DNA of 64,000 nucleotides from Candidatus Dojkabacteria bacterium (GTDB taxonomy: Bacteria; Patescibacteriota; Dojkabacteria; JAOAGR01). The position numbers were made by a program, and so were the translations under genes. Under the pieces are notes generated by a model, which ran no database searches, was not told the origin of the DNA, and saw only the letters and a list, made by a program, of their open reading frames with translations. Shown one piece after another: positions 8,571 through 55,727 of this stretch. Location of the stretch: NCBI GenBank assembly GCA_025999155.1, contig AP026679.1, forward strand, positions 514,135 to 578,134. Direction: 5' to 3'. Positions within the stretch are counted from its first letter, which is position 1; the number at the start of each line of letters is the position of its first letter.

Positions 8571-9890
8571 GTGGTTGTAATCTATGTTTTAAAACTTTTT
8601 ATTTTTTTATTGAGAACTTTTACTTCTAATTCAGCTACAGCTTTACCTGGTTTGATATTGGAAAGATTTTTTCCGCGGATTGTGAAGAGAATATTTAATC
8701 AATTTAACAAAGTCATATTAATCACTGGCACTAATGGTAAAACTACGACGACTCATATGATTTGTTATTTGCTTCAACAAAATGGAATAAAAACGATAAC
8801 AAATCCAAGTGGTTCTAACCTCATACGTGGAATTATATCTGCTATCGTTGATAGAATGGACATTTTTGGGCGAGTAGATGCTCAAGTTGGTGTTTTTGAA
8901 ATGGAGGAGGGTAGTATTCGGAAAATAATTAAATTTATAAGCCCAGATATCATCGTCGTGACAAATATTTTTAGGGATCAACTCGATGCATATGGAGAAA
9001 TTGATAAAACTTATAAGTATATTAAAGAAGCTGTTGAAGGATCTAATGATCCAATATTAATTTTAAATGGTGATGATTTTCGTGTAGCAGATTTAAAGCA
9101 TTATACTCGAAATACCATTATAGAAATACAAGTGGACCATCAGTATATTTCTCAAATTAAATTAGAAAAAAATCCTTTTGTGGAGAAAACGTCAAACAAT
9201 ACTCTGAATGAAGGTAGATTAGAAAAATTTCTAATTAAAAATGTCAAAGTGGGTCGGGATTTGTCAGTGACGTTTGATTTGTGTGGAGATGTCACAAACT
9301 TTTTAGACAATCGTATAAAAGTACCTGGTTTACATAATGCGATCAATGCTGCTTTGGCTATTTTGACTGTAAGAGAGACACTTTCTTTTCCAAATATGAA
9401 TTTGAATTTAGAAGATTTCAATCCCGTATTTGGTAGAGGGGAAATAATTGAGTTAAAAGATAAAAAGAATGGTATAAATAAAAATTTTCAGATACTTTTA
9501 GCCAAAAATCCGGCAGGGATGAATTTAAATTTACATTTACTTACTCATTGTCCCTTACAGGATGCAGCGGTTTTAATTCTTCTAAATGATAAGATTGCTG
9601 ATGGTCGGGATGTCTCTTGGATCTGGGATGTAGATTTTAGACTTCTAAAAAGATTTGATCCTTCAGATATTTACATTAGTGGTATGAGAAGATGGGATCT
9701 AGCTGTCAGACTAAAATATGAAGGGTTTACAGTGAAAGCAGAAAATATTTTTGACAATATCGAAAAGGCTTTGGTTCAAATTAGGGCATCAAAAATATAT
9801 GTTTTACCAACATATACTGCTATGCTTGAGTTTCGTCATGCCATAAGTAAATTTACACAAGTAAAAGCAATGTGGAGATCCAATGGATAA
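8571..9890 (+). CDS. murT: Lipid II isoglutaminyl synthase subunit MurT (Mur-ligase-like domain + DUF1727)
   Basis: P-loop ILITGTNGKTTTTHM and a Mur ligase central domain with a C-terminal extension. It is immediately followed by, and overlaps 8 nt with, a GatD-like amidotransferase. Confidence 0.7.
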   Translation: MVVIYVLKLFIFLLRTFTSNSATALPGLILERFFPRIVKRIFNQFNKVILITGTNGKTTTTHMICYLLQQNGIKTITNPSGSNLIRGIISAIVDRMDIFGRVDAQVGVFEMEEGSIRKIIKFISPDIIVVTNIFRDQLDAYGEIDKTYKYIKEAVEGSNDPILILNGDDFRVADLKHYTRNTIIEIQVDHQYISQIKLEKNPFVEKTSNNTLNEGRLEKFLIKNVKVGRDLSVTFDLCGDVTNFLDNRIKVPGLHNAINAALAILTVRETLSFPNMNLNLEDFNPVFGRGEIIELKDKKNGINKNFQILLAKNPAGMNLNLHLLTHCPLQDAAVLILLNDKIADGRDVSWIWDVDFRLLKRFDPSDIYISGMRRWDLAVRLKYEGFTVKAENIFDNIEKALVQIRASKIYVLPTYTAMLEFRHAISKFTQVKAMWRSNG

Positions 9891-10653
9891 ATACCAATTA
9901 AAAATAAATCATTTGTATTCGGAAAATCTCAATATTTATGGAGATTTAGGGAATATAACCGCCTTAAAATATAGGTCTCAGGTAAGAGGTATAAAGGTTG
10001 AAGTTGTTCATACCGAATTAAATGACGAGGTTATAGAAGAAGCAGATATTTATTTTATAGGTGGTGGACAAGATAATGATCAAATGCAGGTTTTTAGACA
10101 TCTTATTAGACATAGAGATTTTATTAAAAAAGAGGTAGAAATTGGTAAGGTATTTGTGTTGATTTGTGGTGGTTATCAATTATTTGGCAAGTATTTTTTG
10201 GATGCCGAAGGTAATTTAATTGATGGTTTACATATTTTAGATATCGAAACTCGTGCTCCGGGTCCAGAGGTAAAATCTCGATGTATAGGGAATATCATCG
10301 TAGAGATGAGTGATGATTTTGTGAAATATTGGAATGTGGATATTAATTTTTCACGATATATAGTTGGTTTTGAGAATCATGGAGGGCAAACAAAGCTTCG
10401 TTCAACGAAAATGAAACCCATCGGTCGTGTTATAGTTGGCTTTGGAAATAACTATTTTGATAGGTTAGAAGGTTGTTACTATAAAAACATAATTGGCACT
10501 TATTGCCACGGACCATTATTACCAAAAAACCCTCACTTAGCTGACGCTATAATATCCAAAGCTTTAGGAATCTCAAAAATAAAGCATTTGCCAGATGATT
10601 ATGAATCCGAAGCACATAAATACATACTAAATCGATACAAAATCAAAACATGA
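9883..10653 (+). CDS. gatD: Lipid II isoglutaminyl synthase glutaminase subunit GatD (CobB/CobQ-like class I glutamine amidotransferase)
   Basis: 256 aa with catalytic Cys in VLICGGYQLFGKYF and a His near the C-terminus (TYCHGPLLP). It is paired and translationally coupled with murT. Confidence 0.7.
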   Translation: MDKYQLKINHLYSENLNIYGDLGNITALKYRSQVRGIKVEVVHTELNDEVIEEADIYFIGGGQDNDQMQVFRHLIRHRDFIKKEVEIGKVFVLICGGYQLFGKYFLDAEGNLIDGLHILDIETRAPGPEVKSRCIGNIIVEMSDDFVKYWNVDINFSRYIVGFENHGGQTKLRSTKMKPIGRVIVGFGNNYFDRLEGCYYKNIIGTYCHGPLLPKNPHLADAIISKALGISKIKHLPDDYESEAHKYILNRYKIKT

Positions 10654-42508: not shown

Positions 42509-44026
42509 TTATATAAATAGCTCTGGATAAATACTTTTTGTTACTTCATCTATTTCATAACGTAATTGTGGAAAAGGTACACCTTCACGTGCTGGGACAT
42601 TTTCAAAGAACCAGAAGTTGCGTTCTGAATGACCCCATCCAAAGGTTGGTGGCATACCATATTCAAGCATCTCTACAAAATCTATATCAAGCATTTGAGC
42701 TTCTTCATCACCTGCATCTCGTAGTTTTTGTTGTTCTTTAAATCTTTCTAATTGATCTAATGGATCATTTAACTCTGAGTAGCCATTGCCTAATTCGGAT
42801 CCGCCGATGACAGGATGGATTCTTTGTGTAAGTTGTGGATTGTCGGGACATGTTTTGGCAAGTGGAGACATAAATGTCGGATCATGTAATAACCATACAG
42901 GGCCACCTATTGTAGCTCGTATTAATTTCCAAAGATGATCTATTCCTCTCTCAAGATTTATAGCTTTTCCAGGGGAAACATTATTAGCCTTGAGTATGTT
43001 TTTTATTTCATCAATATTAGTATTAAATATATCTATATTAAATCTTTGTTTTATAATAGTTGCATAGTCTATTCTTTCCCATGGTTTAGTTAAATCTACA
43101 TCAAATCCGCGTATATTAAATTTTAATGTGCCATACACCTTTTCTAATACATAACGGAACATTTCTTCAACAAATTCTATGCCATCTTCGTAATTTGCAT
43201 ATGCCCAATAAAACTCCATAGCAATGTGTTCTGGTAAATGTTCGTCGCTAAGTCCTTCATTTCGAAATCGTGGTCCAATTTCATAAACTTTATGATAGCC
43301 TCCTCCGATAAGTCTTTTAAGATATAATTCCTGGGAAATACGTAGATAAAAGTCTTGATCCAAAGCATCCATATGTGTAACAAAAGGTTTTGCGTCTGCT
43401 CCTCCTGTGACATGTTCAAGTACTGGGATATTTATTTCTAAAAATCCATTTTGCTTTAAAAACTCTCTGTGATATTCCCAGAATTTTGCTCGTCTAATGA
43501 ATCGTTCATAAACATCTCTATTGATATTTGTATCTAGATAACGCCTTCTCAATCGTGTTTCTTTATCGACTAAGCCATCCCATGAATTAGGTAATGGTCT
43601 TAGGGTTTTTGTTAAGATTCTAACTTTATGTACTTCTACTGAGATTTCTCCTCTTTTTGTTTTACTAACTACACCATGAGCCTCTATTATATCTCCAATA
43701 TCAATTAATTTTAGATCATCAAAATTCAATTCACTATCTTCATAGTTTGCCCGTTGTACGTTTTCGGATTTGATATAGAGCTGTATTTTGTCTGTATGAT
43801 CCTTTAAATCAATAAAATATAGTTTTCCATGTTCACGAATTGCAAAAGCTCTACCTGCAACTACAACATCCTTACCAGCTAATTCATTGAACCTCGTTTG
43901 TATATCTTTATTGTCTATATTACGGTATGATTTTGCGGGGTAGGGGTTTATACCTAAAGATTTTAATTGGTTTAATTTTTCTATGCGTGCGTCTCTTAGT
44001 TCTTTTAGTGTTGCCATATGTATCAA
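42509..44026 (-). CDS. lysS: Lysine--tRNA ligase (class II)
   Basis: N-terminal OB anticodon-binding domain. Motif 2 reads GPRFRNEGLSDEHLPEHIAMEFYWAY. Motif 3 reads GGSELGNGYSELNDP. Confidence 0.9.
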   Translation of the reverse strand: MIHMATLKELRDARIEKLNQLKSLGINPYPAKSYRNIDNKDIQTRFNELAGKDVVVAGRAFAIREHGKLYFIDLKDHTDKIQLYIKSENVQRANYEDSELNFDDLKLIDIGDIIEAHGVVSKTKRGEISVEVHKVRILTKTLRPLPNSWDGLVDKETRLRRRYLDTNINRDVYERFIRRAKFWEYHREFLKQNGFLEINIPVLEHVTGGADAKPFVTHMDALDQDFYLRISQELYLKRLIGGGYHKVYEIGPRFRNEGLSDEHLPEHIAMEFYWAYANYEDGIEFVEEMFRYVLEKVYGTLKFNIRGFDVDLTKPWERIDYATIIKQRFNIDIFNTNIDEIKNILKANNVSPGKAINLERGIDHLWKLIRATIGGPVWLLHDPTFMSPLAKTCPDNPQLTQRIHPVIGGSELGNGYSELNDPLDQLERFKEQQKLRDAGDEEAQMLDIDFVEMLEYGMPPTFGWGHSERNFWFFENVPAREGVPFPQLRYEIDEVTKSIYPELFI

Positions 44027-46181: not shown

Positions 46182-46258
46182 TGGAGCGAGCGATCGGATT
46201 CGAACCGACGGCCTTCTCCTTGGCAAGGAGACGTTCTAGCCAACTGAACTACGCTCGC
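46182..46258 (-). tRNA. tRNA-Gly (anticodon GCC), CCA encoded
   Basis: Reverse complement GCGAGCG-TA-GTTC-AGTTGGCTA-GAAC-G-TCTCC-TTGCCAA-GGAGA-AGGCC-GTCGG-TTCGAAT-CCGAT-CGCTCGC-T-CCA. The cloverleaf is good, with anticodon GCC. Confidence 0.85.
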
Positions 46259-50612: not shown

Positions 50613-50659
50613 AATTAATAAAGGATATAAATAGTGCAAGTTTAATTTTTAGTTTTTTA

Positions 50660-50920
50660 ATGTTTAAAGTATGCACAATGGGTAACGAGAATTGGATTAT
50701 AGAAGTTAAAGCTATTTTACTAATATTAGCTATATGTTCGCTTTTTTATATTTTTCTATTTACGCTTGTACATTTGACCTCAAGCCCTGAGAAAAGACCA
50801 CCTTACTTGTTTTGGGATGATAGAAGACAGGGTTATACTAAAGATATTCTGGAGGACAGATATTGGGAAATACGTGAACAAAAAGAAAAGGAAAATATTT
50901 ACCAGGGACAAAATGAATAG
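50660..50920 (+). CDS. Possible small single-TM protein
   Basis: An 86-aa ORF downstream of ftsH with one hydrophobic helix (ILLILAICSLFYIFLFTLV). No homology recognised. Confidence 0.3.
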   Translation: MFKVCTMGNENWIIEVKAILLILAICSLFYIFLFTLVHLTSSPEKRPPYLFWDDRRQGYTKDILEDRYWEIREQKEKENIYQGQNE

Positions 50921-51004
50921 TGAATATTTTTTCGTCAAATTAATTCTTATACTAATTAGCTTCAGTTTGGAAAATACTGCCACATAATTTTAGAATGTAG
51001 TGTT

Positions 51005-52366
51005 TTATACTGTTTTGTGCTTACTTATTCTTTGTCCTGCAATTCGATCTAGATCACTTGGGAATAAAACAGCTTCTCTGATGTTTTTAAGCCGAAATAT
51101 TTGTTGTGTCATTCGCTCTAAACCAAATGAAAACCCTGCTTCATAAGGTATACCGTACTTAAATGCTTCTAAATAGTGTTCATAATACTCAAGAGTTAAC
51201 CCTTGATTCTTCATATTTTCCACTAATTTATTGTAATCATGAATACGATGAGTACCAGATAACCATTCAAGACCTCTGCATACTAGATCGAAGCTGAGAG
51301 ATTCATCTGGATCCTCCGGGTTATTACGAGTGTAAAAATTTTTGTCTTTCTTAAAATTTAATATCCATAAAAAATCAGATCCATATTCCTCTAAAGCCCA
51401 CTCAGCAATCAACCTTTCATCTTGCGGGTCAAGATCTAACTCTGGCCTTTGAGCTGATTTTCCGGCCTTTTTTTCAATTATTTGTAACGCCTCTTTGACT
51501 TTGACTTTCGGGAATCTAGATGCTGGAAGTTGAGGCAAAGTAGTGTTCCACAATTGTAATTCCTTGCTATAGTTATTATCTAAGTGATTAAAAATTTTTC
51601 TGACTACACGTTCGATAATTTCTAGACATTCATCATAGTCTTCTATAAAACCTACTTCTCCGTCCATCTGCGTAATTTCCATCAAATGACGAGTAGTGTT
51701 ATGTTTTTCAGCTCGAAAAACTGGCGTTATGGTGAAAACCCTTTCGAAAACTCCCACCATTATTTGCTTATATACTTGCGGACTTTGAGCTAGATATGCT
51801 TTATGATCATAATACTTGACTTCAAAGACCGAAGCTCCACTTTCAGATGGGGCTCCCATAAGTACAGGTGATCTAAATTCTATGAAGCCTTCTTCAATCA
51901 TTGCATTTCTGAAAGCTGTCAGTATTCCAGCTTGTACCTTAAATATAGCCTTTTGTTTTTCATGCCGTAATGTTACTGGGCGGTGATCTATAATAGTATC
52001 TAAATGAGCGTCAAGAGAATCTTTATTTATTTCTACAGGCACTTGATCAAGGACAGGGGATATCACCTCAATCTCTGAAACATGAACTTCTAAACCCTCT
52101 TTATCAGGCTTTTTTATTACATACCCGCGGATGCTAAGAACAGACTCGACTTGTAAATGCTTGATAGAGTCTATTTGCTGTGCATTTAGTACACATTGTA
52201 CAAATCCAGTACTATCACGCAATAGCAAAAATCCTAATTTACCTAGGATACGAAGCCTATGCATCCACCCAGCAACTAGTACATATTGATCGATATGTTT
52301 ATTTAAGTCCTTAATTAGAGTTCTTTCACGCATAGTATATACATCCCACAATTGTACAATGAACAT
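51005..52366 (-). CDS. aspS: Aspartate--tRNA ligase, compact archaeal/eukaryal-type (possibly non-discriminating)
   Basis: 453 aa with an N-terminal OB domain. Motif 2 reads FRAEKHNTTRHLMEITQMDGE. Motif 3 reads LSGTHRIHDYN...FGLERM. GS.RIH is the AspRS signature rather than the AsnRS one. An alternative start lies at the Met at 52331-52333. Confidence 0.75.
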   Translation of the reverse strand: MFIVQLWDVYTMRERTLIKDLNKHIDQYVLVAGWMHRLRILGKLGFLLLRDSTGFVQCVLNAQQIDSIKHLQVESVLSIRGYVIKKPDKEGLEVHVSEIEVISPVLDQVPVEINKDSLDAHLDTIIDHRPVTLRHEKQKAIFKVQAGILTAFRNAMIEEGFIEFRSPVLMGAPSESGASVFEVKYYDHKAYLAQSPQVYKQIMVGVFERVFTITPVFRAEKHNTTRHLMEITQMDGEVGFIEDYDECLEIIERVVRKIFNHLDNNYSKELQLWNTTLPQLPASRFPKVKVKEALQIIEKKAGKSAQRPELDLDPQDERLIAEWALEEYGSDFLWILNFKKDKNFYTRNNPEDPDESLSFDLVCRGLEWLSGTHRIHDYNKLVENMKNQGLTLEYYEHYLEAFKYGIPYEAGFSFGLERMTQQIFRLKNIREAVLFPSDLDRIAGQRISKHKTV

Positions 52367-52385
52367 TCATCCAGCGCTGTATAAT

Positions 52386-52826
52386 TTATTGGCTAGGTAT
52401 AGCTTGTTGATAACCAATCATTGCTCCATATACACTATTAACAATCGTTAACAACAACCCAATTACAGATATTATAAGAGCGACGATTGCGATTGTACGT
52501 TTAGTTTGAGATCGCATTCCGAAGATAGAGCATGCGATTCCAGCAACAGCTGTTGGACATCCACATAAAGGAATAAGCCATGCCACTAAGGAAAATATAG
52601 ATGCTATCAACCCGCCTATAGCTAATCGATCATATGTTAAAGAGTCGGATTGAACAGATTGGTACATTTGTGTACTGTTTACTACAGTTTGTTGCAGCGT
52701 AGGCGTCGTCGTGGCATTGTAATTTGGTGAATATCCGTTATATGCTTGATTTGGGTTTTGTGTCGGTATCTGAGTACCTTGTATTGACCCTGGTTGTGGA
52801 TTGTTTTGTTGTTGGCTTGGTTCCAT
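52386..52826 (-). CDS. DUF4190-like small membrane protein (Q/N/P-rich N-terminus, two C-terminal TM helices)
   Basis: 146 aa. MEPSQQQNNPQPGSIQGTQIPTQNPN... is followed by LAIGGLIASIFSLVAWLIPLCGCPTAVAGIACSIFGMRS and a second TM. Confidence 0.5.
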   Translation of the reverse strand: MEPSQQQNNPQPGSIQGTQIPTQNPNQAYNGYSPNYNATTTPTLQQTVVNSTQMYQSVQSDSLTYDRLAIGGLIASIFSLVAWLIPLCGCPTAVAGIACSIFGMRSQTKRTIAIVALIISVIGLLLTIVNSVYGAMIGYQQAIPSQ

Positions 52827-53115
52827 GTTCTTTGTTTAAGTTAATTAAAAATCCTGCATAGTCTAACATACTAATGGTTATTTGCAATATATTTGTGTAA
52901 AAGATGTATAAATAATTCTGTATTTATTTGTTCTAAAGCATCTTGTAGTTATTTTAGATTACTTAATAGGTGATCAATACAATTGTCATTGAATTTTGAG
53001 GTAGATATGATCCAACCGGTAGGCATGAATGTAGAATAAAGTTTATGCAACAACGAAAACCTACAAATATATTTGATTTAATGTCATGATATTTTGTTTC
53101 TTTTACGTCCTTTCA

Positions 53116-53288
53116 ATCTCTGAAACTTGGACCTCTAAACCGTGTTTATTAGGACTTTTATTACACACCCACGGATGCTAAGAACAGACTCGACTTGCAA
53201 ATGCTTGATAGAGTCTATTTGTTGTGCATTAGTACACATTGTACAAATCCAGTACTATCACGCAATAGCAAAAAGCCTAGGCATCGAC
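53116..53288 (-). pseudogene. Truncated duplicate of the aspS 5' region (about 90% identical to 52071-52268)
   Basis: Direct alignment by eye: atctctgaaacttggacctctaaacc...ggatgctaagaacagactcgacttgcaaatgcttgatagagtctatttgttgtgcatt agtacacattgtacaaatccagtactatcacgcaatagcaaaaagcctag versus the aspS copy. No intact ORF. Confidence 0.6.
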
Positions 53289-53524
53289 TCTACAATAATG
53301 ACTTCTCGATATACATGATGATTCAATAATTAGTTAAAACTAAAATTACACAACCTGAAAGCACGTTTGTGTAGTAAATGTGTTATCTAACATAAATGAG
53401 TCAATCCAAAACATGATCTTTATCTGCTTTGTACATGCTGCTGGTACATCTCTTCTAGCACAAGTGTATTAGCGAGTGAGTGAAAAATATGCTTCAAACA
53501 GATATTAATAAAAGTACTATGGTA

Positions 53525-53885
53525 GACAGCATAATACCAATAATCGCCAGTATGCGTTTTGAATGAGATCACATTCCGAAAATACAGCTCACGAGTGCAC
53601 CAATTGGTATTGGAGATCTTAGTATGGGATGAAACAACTACGTTACTAATGCCACCATAGCGGCGTTTAAGCCTCCGACAACCAATTTATCATACATGGA
53701 AGAATTCGAAGGATCAGATGAGAATTCGGGGTCCATAGGGTCATTATTGTCCGTTAAAATGCATTGTTGTAGCATGTGCTGTGTGGGCATTGTCGTAGCG
53801 TTCGGAGTTAATCGAGATTTACAGGTTTGGTTCGTCTTGCATTGGCCTTCGATTGTTTTGTTCTGTTGTTTGCATATTTCCTTGC
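53525..53885 (-). pseudogene. Decayed paralog/duplicate of the DUF4190-like gene (about 60-65% identical to 52450-52830)
   Basis: Recognisable colinear similarity (gagatcacattccgaaaatacagctc.. versus gagatcgcattccgaagatagagcat.., and so on). It sits at the same offset (about 1.05-1.08 kb) as the aspS fragment and has no ORF of 60 aa or more on the minus strand. Confidence 0.45.
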
Positions 53886-54080
53886 TAAAATCAATACAAA
53901 TCCATTAAGTTAGCATAATACTGATTGTTTGTAATATATGCTGTCCTCAGTCCTGCGCATTATTCAAACTATATTCGAGCTTGTGTGCTGGTAGTGTAAA
54001 TAATAGTATATTAATTCGGGATTGAGGCTTATTTTTGTTTTTTTTTTGATATTTTTGGATATATTTGATATAATAAGTGC

Positions 54081-55727
54081 ATGAAGCAAACAAAATTTAC
54101 AAATACCTTCAAGTTAATGTCTTTATATTCTGTGTTTCTTGCGTCCTTTGTGATGCTTATATATTTCGTTGCTGCTCGGTTTGTAACAAACGCATCGTCT
54201 AGCAATTACTCTATAAGATTTAATGGTACTGCTTCTTCATATGTCAGTATACCTTTAGATAACGCTCCGTCTTTAAATGTGGGTGCTGGCGATTTTACTA
54301 TAGAGTGGTGGATGCAACCTGTATCAGTGTCTACTAGTACATCATGTAGTAGTGTAGCAGATGCTTTTACTCAGGGGCATCTTATATTTGATAGGGATAT
54401 CTTTGGACCTGGAGACTACGGTGATTTTGGAATTTCTTTGATGGCAGACCGTCGGTTAGCTTTTAGCGCACATAATGGCACTAGTGGGATTACAGCATGT
54501 TCATCAGTATTGAATCTTAATCAGTGGTATTACATAGCAGCAGTGCGTTCGGGAAATCAGATCCGCATCTATGTAAATGGTACATTAGATGACACTCGTA
54601 CTATATCAGGAGATTTAAGTTACAGGACTGGTAGATCTACTAGCTACTCGGCTGATCCTTTGATAGTCTTAGGGGCAGAGAAGCACACGGCTGTAGGAGG
54701 AGAAACATTCACCGCATACCACTATAACGGTTATTTAGATGAGTTACGCCTATCAAATATAGCTCGTACAATATCTGGGTCTCCCACAACTCCTTTCGTT
54801 GTGGATGGTAATACTGTAGCTCTTTTCCGATTTGAAAATAATGTAAATAGTGAACTTGGCTCAATTCCTGGTTTGACTTCGTCATCCGTGACATATTCTA
54901 CCGATGTGCCACCTTTTGATACAACTCCAACCCCAAGTGATACTCCGACTCCAAGCGATACGCCAACTCCAAGTGATACGCCAACCCCAAGCGATACGCC
55001 AACCCCAAGCGATACGCCAACTCCAAGTGATACGCCAACCCCAAGCGATACGCCAACTCCAAGTGATACGCCAACCCCAAGTGATACCCCAACTCCAAGT
55101 GGCACTCCAACCCCAAGTGATACCCCAACTCCAAGTGGTACTCCAACCCCAAGTGATACCCCAACTCCAAGTGGCACTCCAACCCCAAGTGATACCCCAA
55201 CTCCAAGTGGCACTCCAACCCCAAGTGATACCCCAACTCCAAGTGGCACTCCAACCCCAAGTGATACCCCAACTCCAAGTGGTACACCAACTCCAACCCG
55301 CACTCCGACTCACACAAACACACCGATAGCTACAATACCTGCCACCTCACCTACACAGGCCCCGACATATGTATGGAGACAGGATGATACTCCGATTTAT
55401 TATTCCGATAACAATTCTAGTGTAATTTATTATTCCGATAACAATTCTAGTGTAACGTCTACTGTCTCTCCGACACATTCTTCTCAAACTCAAACCCCTA
55501 CTGTTCCATCAGATCCTAATAGAGAAGATAAGTTAAGCGTTAGAGATGGTAGAGATGGTGAGGAACCTAATGACGTAGCTTCGCAATCTAACGGAAGCCA
55601 GGAAAACACAGAAAATAACGGTACGATTTCATGGCTTAATCCGACGTTTCTCACTATTGCTTGTGTGGTCGGTCTCTTGATCTTGCTGATAATTTTTATC
55701 ATATACTACAGGAGATCAAGAGATTAG
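54081..55727 (+). CDS. Cell-surface protein: N-terminal signal/TM, LamG (concanavalin A-like lectin, Laminin_G_3) domain, (TPTPSD/G)n linker, C-terminal TM anchor
   Basis: The LamG_3 signature reads [57 protein letters not shown]. There are 21 tandem TPTPS[DG] hexapeptides. The C-terminus is [26 protein letters not shown]. Confidence 0.7.
54922..55300. repeat. Coding tandem repeat, 18-bp unit x ~21 (ACNCCAACYCCAAGYGRY encoding TPTPSD / TPTPSG), with a 36-bp higher-order unit in the distal half
   Basis: The proximal copies are acgccaac(c/t)ccaag(c/t)gat (TPTPSD). The distal copies alternate accccaactccaagtggcact / ccaaccccaagtgat ([12 protein letters not shown]). Confidence 0.9.
55396..55455. 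repeat. Perfect 30-bp tandem duplication (tttattattccgataacaattctagtgtaa x2) inside the same gene, encoding [10 protein letters not shown] twice
   Basis: Two identical adjacent 30-mers on the plus strand. Confidence 0.85.

Follow-up and report, generated by a model that had tools for sequence, protein, structure and literature searches.

The 64,000-nucleotide stretch of Candidatus Dojkabacteria contig AP026679.1 that we analysed (hereafter the window, whose positions are used below) contains about 1.25 kb without open reading frames (ORFs; 52827-54080) between a gene for a small DUF4190-like membrane protein, the neighbour of the aspartyl-tRNA synthetase (AspRS) gene aspS, and a gene for a LamG-like surface protein. 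Here we show that two direct copies of a unit of about 1,045 bp, 52068-53112 and 53113-54149, abut head-to-tail at this place without any spacer. The contents of the two copies, the divergence between them and their fate in related genomes make it probable that the region is a decayed 1.05-kb tandem duplication, which is old and was later partly gene-converted.

Two tandem units and their contents

Repeats were identified with a repeat finder, by Smith-Waterman alignment and by self-blastn of 52000-54100 against the whole window, and all three agreed. An earlier note on this DNA, which had proposed a self-comparison as a check, described a decayed tandem duplication of about 1.05 kb that comprised the aspS 5' end and the DUF4190-like gene. 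Self-blastn bore this out with four off-diagonal colinear matches, but the unit goes further than the note had noticed: it takes in the promoter region and first ~23 codons of the LamG-like gene and extends to 54149. The first match, between 52068-52236 and 53113-53279, shows 91% identity over 169 nt (E 4e-55) and lies within a few bases of the copy of about 90% identity reported before; the longer aspS range given at that time (to 52268 and 53288) reflects a short stretch of similarity on the far side of a 23-nt deletion in the copy. The repeat finder divides this match into sub-blocks of 83%, 95% and 98% identity at offsets of 1045, 1044 and 1043. The second match, 52448-52659 with 53505-53719 (61% over 215 nt, E 2e-13), and the third, 52804-52892 with 53853-53939 (66%, E 0.005), correspond to the diverged colinear DUF copy that the note had placed at 60-65% identity and at the same offset. 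The fourth, 53039-53113 with 54075-54149 (73% over 75 nt, E 1e-9), was absent from its list. Together the four matches, at offsets of 1036-1060, tile 52068-53112 against 53113-54149, and self-blastn detected no further copy of the unit within the window.

The sole novel junction, 53112/53113, joins LamG codon ~23 to aspS codon 89. Both genes interrupted by the unit nevertheless have one complete copy, aspS at 51005-52333 and LamG at 54081-55727. One intact copy of each flanking gene and one junction are what head-to-tail duplication of an internal segment would leave behind, and this layout accounts for the entire non-coding gap, as had been suggested: the two units tile 52827-54080, and nothing credible turned up there in searches against Rfam (E up to 1) or for tRNA genes. 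The features of the locus are as follows.

51005-52333, minus strand: aspS (442 aa), working copy; PF00152 at 1e-74 and PF01336 at 4e-16 (Pfam)
52068-53112, minus strand: duplication unit 1, with aspS codons 1-89, spacer, intact DUF4190-like gene, intergenic region and dead LamG stub (self-blastn, three- and six-way alignments)
52068-52236, minus strand: R1, the part of working aspS (codons 33-89) that has a well-kept copy in unit 2; 91% identical to 53113-53279
52386-52826, minus strand: gene for a DUF4190-like small membrane protein of 146 aa, 'type 1'; intact ORF in unit 1
52827-53038, no strand: intergenic region of unit 1, which carries a copy of the LamG promoter
53039-53112, plus strand: dead LamG 5' stub; ATG at 53039, 14 codons and then a stop at codon 15; ends at the junction
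53113-54149, minus strand: duplication unit 2, with aspS fragment, decayed spacer, DUF pseudogene, intergenic region and working LamG 5' end
53113-53279, minus strand: R2, fragment of an aspS pseudogene that covers codons 33-89 and has two 1-nt deletions; the putative converted patch is 53161-53279, and 53113-53155 has ancestral-type states
53280-53420, minus strand: decayed aspS codons 1-32 (about 53280-53352) and decayed DUF-aspS spacer; 23-nt deletion beside 53280, start codon lost (alignments)
53421-53875 (approximate ends), minus strand: DUF4190-like pseudogene, 'type 2'; ATG at 53875 kept, three in-frame stops, C-terminus garbled by an insertion
53876-54080, no strand: unit-2 intergenic region, site of the working LamG promoter; 66% identical to the intergenic region of unit 1
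54081-55727, plus strand: LamG-like (Laminin_G_3) surface-protein gene, working copy; PF13385 at 2e-17, ORF, TPSD/TPSG repeat region

Only 54081-54149 of the duplicated unit lies in the working LamG gene. The well-preserved part of the aspS copy is limited to codons 33-89, and codons 1-32 and the spacer are decayed like the rest. In tblastn, AspRS residues 33-89 (442-aa numbering) match 53280-53112 in three frames, that is, with two frameshifts, and the DUF4190-like protein matches 53802-53485 on the minus strand with 40% identity over 106 aa (E 1e-14) and three in-frame stops. The earlier statement that the second copy holds no intact ORFs agrees with the ORF list, which has none of at least 60 aa on the gene strand within this copy. 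Homology together with disrupted frames identifies the DUF copy, the aspS stub and the LamG stub as pseudogenes.

A promoter scan placed the best promoter match for the LamG-like gene at 54046-54074 on the plus strand (TTGATA-17-TATAAT with a TG extension). It ends 7 nt before the ATG, a spacing which suggests that the LamG-like mRNA is leaderless or nearly so. Its homologue in unit 1, at 52983-53011 on the plus strand, reads TTGTCA-17-TATGAT (10/12 matches); the unit-1 intergenic region presumably also holds the promoter of the DUF gene and aspS.

The duplication in related genomes

With the unit-1 DUF protein and AspRS as queries, only three close lineages were found. No protein identical to AspRS of the window turned up in an exact look-up. 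The relatives returned by the contig search with AspRS had at most 69% identity and no synteny upstream of aspS, and hence were of no use for dating, and the useful matches of the metagenome search were limited to L012 (90%) and L013 (73%). Our search of the literature on Dojkabacteria and recombination found nothing bearing on this locus.

Contig L036 (JGI Ga0401068_000233), which comes from another sample, is colinear with the window over 20 kb and has the same junction, aspS stub and DUF pseudogene; two stops of the pseudogene are common to both, and a further 20-nt deletion is present in L036. L037, a Logan contig of 1,022 nt (SRR12784215), begins within the stub and crosses the junction into aspS with 98% identity. 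The LamG stub is found in L036, L037 and L038. The latter (GCA_017880035.1, a contig of 723 kb) and L039, with an overall identity of about 85%, look single-copy at first sight. However, positions 9460-9745 of L038 contain a unit-2-type LamG 5' end, the intergenic region and the opening bases of the DUF pseudogene (with ATG changed to ATT), directly fused to a unit-1-type LamG stub and intergenic region at 9740-9982. The part missing from L038 and L039 corresponds to window 53100-53865 (766 bp), and an AAACAA motif is present at both breakpoints. Thus, the remnants of both units point to descent from the duplicated state, followed by a 766-bp deletion.

L040 and L012, whose AspRS is 90% identical, are single-copy and have no internal repeat; the L012 contig stops at the LamG start and alone is uninformative on copy number, which was settled by L040. 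Their DUF gene resembles the window pseudogene ('type 2') in its N-terminal and central part, and from its C-terminus through the spacer to the aspS 5' end the similarity is to L038. Either collapse by crossover within the DUF genes or replacement by a single-copy haplotype would give this state. The outgroups, at 74-75% AspRS identity, are single-copy as well: LamG stands divergent from aspS in L041, and the DUF gene lies directly upstream of aspS in L013. A search for more 'type 2' DUF proteins returned only the frameshifted ORF of L012 itself and weak matches. As an observation in its own right, the sole DUF4190-like gene of L012 (279-714) and L040 (1153-1612) is frameshifted at the same spot, by +1 nt and -5 nt, respectively, with the transmembrane-coding frame downstream of the frameshift still open; the gene is either a very recent pseudogene or the site of an indel hotspot.

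The junction in L036 and L037 and the remnants of both units in L038 and L039 argue that the duplication is old and not an assembly artefact. Judged from these comparisons, it is real in the genome, is common to relatives, has been partly deleted in one and is absent from another; the spare pieces of unit 2 bear no sign of function and, going by these relatives, are dispensable. The earlier note had proposed related genomes as a means of dating, which succeeded in so far as the duplication is old, common to L036 and L037 and present as remnants in L038 and L039, but mosaic genealogies block a date in terms of a clock. Molecular-clock dating against the split between the window and L038 was tried and rejected because each segment has its own genealogy, with synonymous divergence (dS) between lineages ranging from 0.1 to 0.85. 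Between the window and L036, unit 2 is 5-8% different and has 20-nt and smaller indels, against ~1% for unit 1, a comparison confounded by genealogy in that a low-divergence block spans the stub and 70 nt of decayed DNA.

Divergence between the units and probable conversion of an aspS patch

Kimura two-parameter distances (K2P, or K) between unit 1 and unit 2 are 0.34 for the LamG 5' end, 0.60 for the intergenic region, 0.54 and 0.62 for the N-terminal and transmembrane parts of the DUF gene, and 0.77 for the DUF-aspS spacer with the first aspS codons. The distance is 0.04 over 52113-52236 (124 nt; aspS codons 33 to about 74) and 0.20 over 52068-52112 (45 nt; codons about 75-89), and the identity of the two copies falls abruptly at 53279/53280. 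The decayed segment beyond this border, 53280-53420, which has a K2P of 0.77 to unit 1, has one of 0.43-0.47 to the functional sequences of L012 and L038. Adjoining parts of the same stub contrast 10- to 20-fold, and since it is non-functional throughout, this contrast cannot be put down to aspS evolving slowly.

Informative sites, defined as those at which the working aspS of the window and L036 (haplotype X, see below) differs from the state common to L038 and L040, were scored across these four lineages. In stub 53161-53279, 13 sites have the X state, 2 the ancestral state and 1 another; in 53113-53155, all 4 are ancestral and 0 X (Fisher p=0.004 between the two parts). The decayed codons 1-32 of the stub have 5 X, 7 ancestral and 6 other states. 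Thus, the patch, unlike its flanks, groups with the working aspS of its own genome, and this is the pattern that marks gene conversion. Of the two explanations in the earlier note, differential decay and gene conversion confined to aspS, the K2P profile and the informative sites indicate that conversion explains the well-kept patch, and decay alone is rejected.

One site hints, as weak evidence, that exchange continued after the window and L036 had split: position 53265 in the stub and its counterpart 52222 in the gene are T and T in the window and C and C in L036, and L038 and L012 have C. Later changes of the stub's own, a 1-nt deletion, an A-to-G and a C-to-T, are common to the window and L036, which differ by 1 in 167 nt of the stub. 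Purifying selection was considered for this near identity and rejected, because the low-divergence block of ~2 kb (~53350-51400) in which the stub lies also covers ~70 nt of decayed DNA and all of unit 1, including its intergenic region.

Mosaic genomes

By sliding-window comparison, the window matches L036 at 99-100% over 52826-51400 and 50774-49136, and L012/L040 at 98-100% over 51368-50800 and 48986-44969, where its identity to L036 is 70-92%. L036 and L038, in turn, are 99-100% identical over 45994-44969. Such a mosaic may reflect either frequent homologous recombination between lineages or strain-chimeric assemblies; the pattern suggests that homologous recombination is active in the population. 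Haplotype X, common to the window and L036, extends from about 52550 to about 51400 and comprises the DUF C-terminus, the spacer and aspS codons 1-310. Over 52554-52268, it is only 57-70% identical to L012 and L038, which are 79-94% identical to each other. Amino-acid divergence is raised in the oligonucleotide/oligosaccharide-binding (OB)-fold domain of aspS, with a non-synonymous divergence (dN) of 0.12-0.38 and a dN/dS of 0.25-0.5 for codons 1-89, and haplotype X looks like a patch imported from a more distant lineage.

Proposed history and alternative explanations

The history that we consider probable starts from the order LamG-like gene, intergenic region, DUF4190-like gene and aspS, with LamG transcribed away from the other two. 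A segment of 1,045 bp, from LamG codon ~23 to aspS codon 89, was duplicated head-to-tail, which created the single new junction, with unit 1 completing aspS and unit 2 completing LamG. Left over as functionless spares were, in unit 1, the LamG 5' stub and, in unit 2, the second DUF gene and the aspS 5' stub, all of which decayed through stops, frameshifts and indels to a K2P of 0.34-0.77 from their partners. Later, we infer, ~120 bp of aspS sequence (codons 33 to ~73) passed from the working gene to the dead fragment by non-reciprocal homologous recombination, which reset the patch to near identity; the tract would end where homology ends, at the 23-nt deletion. An older event of the same kind probably accounts for the intermediate divergence of codons 74-89. 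Today the region is junk DNA under slow removal, of which one relative has already lost 766 bp between AAACAA direct repeats, and functional need in the gap is limited to the promoters of the flanking genes.

Several points weigh against this history. The lineages are mosaic, and there is no single tree on which its events could be dated. The range of dS between haplotypes (0.1-0.85) overlaps the distances between unit 1 and unit 2, and the units may therefore have differed already when they were joined. The sole pointer to the direction of conversion, from gene to fragment, is that the gene has remained intact, and conversion after the split of the window and L036 depends on one site. Finally, to call the state common to L038 and L040 'ancestral' is to assume that the aspS 5' haplotype of the window and L036 is derived or imported.

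The second of these points leads to the main rival for the origin of the junction, namely that a haplotype from a related strain, already divergent, was integrated by homology-facilitated illegitimate recombination, with aspS as the anchor and an illegitimate join between LamG codon ~23 and aspS codon 89. The uneven identity would then partly reflect rates between lineages, fast in the DUF gene and intergenic region and slow in aspS. Such an origin fits a strongly mosaic population and unit distances (K 0.34-0.77) that lie within the range of haplotype dS (up to 0.85), and the 'type 2' DUF gene stands beside aspS in the single-copy L040 and L012 and type 1 beside aspS in L038, as would be the case for two allelic haplotypes. 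On the other hand, codons 33-73 of the fragment carry the states of its own working aspS and codons 1-32 and 74-89 do not, and a conversion patch would be needed anyway. Moreover, no true single-copy type-1 genome was found, L038 having remnants of both units, and collapse of the duplication could equally have made the L040 DUF gene, as a type-2/type-1 chimera. We regard integration of a divergent haplotype as rather unlikely, and it would alter the origin of the junction and not the present nature of the region.

The remaining explanations have far less in their favour. According to one, a single duplication was followed by no later exchange, and the aspS part is better kept through slow evolution; aspS is indeed more constrained than the DUF gene (dN/dS 0.08-0.12 versus 0.25), so that the working partner adds little divergence. 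However, a non-functional stub, with two frameshifts and no start codon, is expected to decay neutrally along its whole length, and here codons 1-32 have a K of 0.43-0.77 from every functional aspS and a 23-nt deletion, with a K of 0.04 in the adjoining 124 nt. The patch also has the lineage-specific states of the working gene, and these give way abruptly near 53160 (p=0.004); the alignment of the decayed 5' part to aspS of L038 and L012 argues against its being unrelated inserted DNA. We consider decay without exchange very improbable. Still less credible, to the point of being negligible, is an assembly artefact, either a collapsed or expanded repeat or a chimeric join of co-existing strains. 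The window does alternate between L036-like and L012/L040-like blocks, as a strain-chimeric consensus can, and contigs of relatives do break here (L012 at the LamG start, and L037 within the repeats at both ends). But the junction, the unit-2 indels and both units lie in one block (~53350-51400) that is ~99% identical to L036 and 98% to L037, which are independent assemblies from other samples; L038 and L039 independently keep remnants of both units, and copies at 61-73% identity are too divergent for a mis-collapsed repeat. Lastly, the patch could be kept by selection if the LamG promoter copy of unit 1 drove a trans-acting antisense RNA against codons 33-89 of the aspS mRNA, selection for pairing then holding the ~120-bp patch near-identical with gene conversion as the means. 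This promoter copy is a good sigma-70-like one that points into the fragment, the patch is 96-98% complementary to the aspS mRNA, and one site has changed in parallel in both copies. Against this, the fragment is deleted in L038 and L039 and absent from L040 and L012, and so is dispensable; its own substitutions give A-C and C-A mismatches rather than G-U wobbles; neither a terminator nor an Rfam match was found; and the 2-kb block of recent shared ancestry to which its near identity in the window and L036 belongs takes in DNA that is plainly neutral. An antisense role is thus highly unlikely.

Comparison with known systems

Tandem segmental duplications that arise by illegitimate or microhomology-mediated joining and are followed by pseudogenisation are familiar in bacteria from studies of Salmonella and E. 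coli. The region shares with them the head-to-tail copies, the single novel junction, one intact copy of each interrupted gene and redundant pieces that decay, as well as relatives that lack part of the duplication or are single-copy. The bacterial duplications that have been described are mostly young and unstable, with near-identical copies. The one in the window, by contrast, is old (K 0.34-0.77) and fixed in several related lineages, and the genome that carries it is a very small one of the candidate phyla radiation (CPR) type, where 1.25 kb of dead DNA is unusual. Gene conversion between bacterial paralogs is known from tufA-tufB in Salmonella and from the silent pilS cassettes and pilE in Neisseria. 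As in those systems, there is a short, sharp-bordered tract of high identity that groups by genome and not by orthology. Unlike them, one partner here is a functionless stub, the apparent direction is from gene to pseudogene, and the exchange has no known phenotypic use and no sign of a dedicated variation system. Homology-facilitated illegitimate recombination has been described in natural transformation of Acinetobacter and Streptococcus; it would give the same architecture, with an aspS anchor, one illegitimate end and a divergent duplicate, but a donor lineage with a clean single-copy type-1 haplotype was not found. The region is therefore a new instance of a well-known process, ordinary genome wear, and implies no new mechanism.

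The decayed and converted duplication has consequences for how this locus is read. What looks like a 1.25-kb 'non-coding' gap in a very compact CPR-type genome is accounted for as dead duplicated DNA, and recognising it as such prevents mis-annotation of the aspS and DUF fragments. In addition, the relatives form a natural series within Dojkabacteria-like genomes, from the duplication with its pseudogenes (the window and L036) and the 766-bp microhomology deletion (L038 and L039) to the single-copy state (L040 and L012), which shows how slowly junk is purged in such genomes. To our knowledge, recombination and pseudogene turnover in these organisms are little documented; the series and the block-wise mosaic suggest that homologous recombination, both within the genome and at the level of the population, is active in this uncultivated group.

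Neighbouring genes and other observations

The host is a CPR bacterium with a G+C content of about 34%, and its nearest named relatives by AspRS are metagenome-assembled genomes of Candidatus Dojkabacteria. The longest ORF of aspS reaches 52366, and the start was placed at ATG 52333 in accordance with relatives and gene callers. Having both an OB-fold anticodon-binding domain and a class II (D/K/N) catalytic core, the enzyme is by domain content of class IIb. It is 98% identical to a JGI protein labelled 'nondiscriminating aspartyl-tRNA synthetase', and relatives are named aspartate--tRNA(Asn) ligase at NCBI and JGI; the putative non-discriminating type is taken from these names. By its dN/dS of 0.08-0.12 against relatives, aspS is strongly constrained. 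A second class IIb synthetase gene, with an OB fold and tRNA-synt_2, lies 7 kb off at 42569-43867, outside the duplication; its product is 21% identical to AspRS, homologues in relatives have about 500 aa, and it probably encodes LysRS or AsnRS.

The 146-aa protein of unit 1 is DUF4190-like by resemblance only, since it scores 15.5 bits (E 0.015) against PF13828, below the gathering threshold of 35 bits. The scores in relatives are 23.4 bits for L038 and 22.5 bits for the corrected L012 protein, and all these matches span profile positions 1-61/62. Proteins 98% and 81% identical occupy the same position in relatives, and a dN/dS of 0.25 against L038 places the unit-1 gene under purifying selection.

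Downstream of aspS, a small conserved membrane ORF (86 aa, 50660-50920) has homologues in L002, L012 and L013. This ORF with its flanks (50613-51004) is 17% different between the window and L036, yet about 99% identical to L012, and is a local hot spot of haplotype difference. Further along, a tRNA-Gly(GCC) gene at 46182-46258 lies behind an 83-nt match of 96% to L013, which is otherwise ~70% identical.

Two further repeats are present within the LamG-like gene. About 20 tandem 18-nt units at 54852-55373 code for peptide repeats; this repeat region aligns at differing lengths in L036 and L038 and is probably a variable linker of the surface protein. At 55395-55454, a perfect 30-nt tandem duplication (ATTTATTATTCCGATAACAATTCTAGTGTA x2), in frame within the gene and doubling a ten-residue peptide, is very young.

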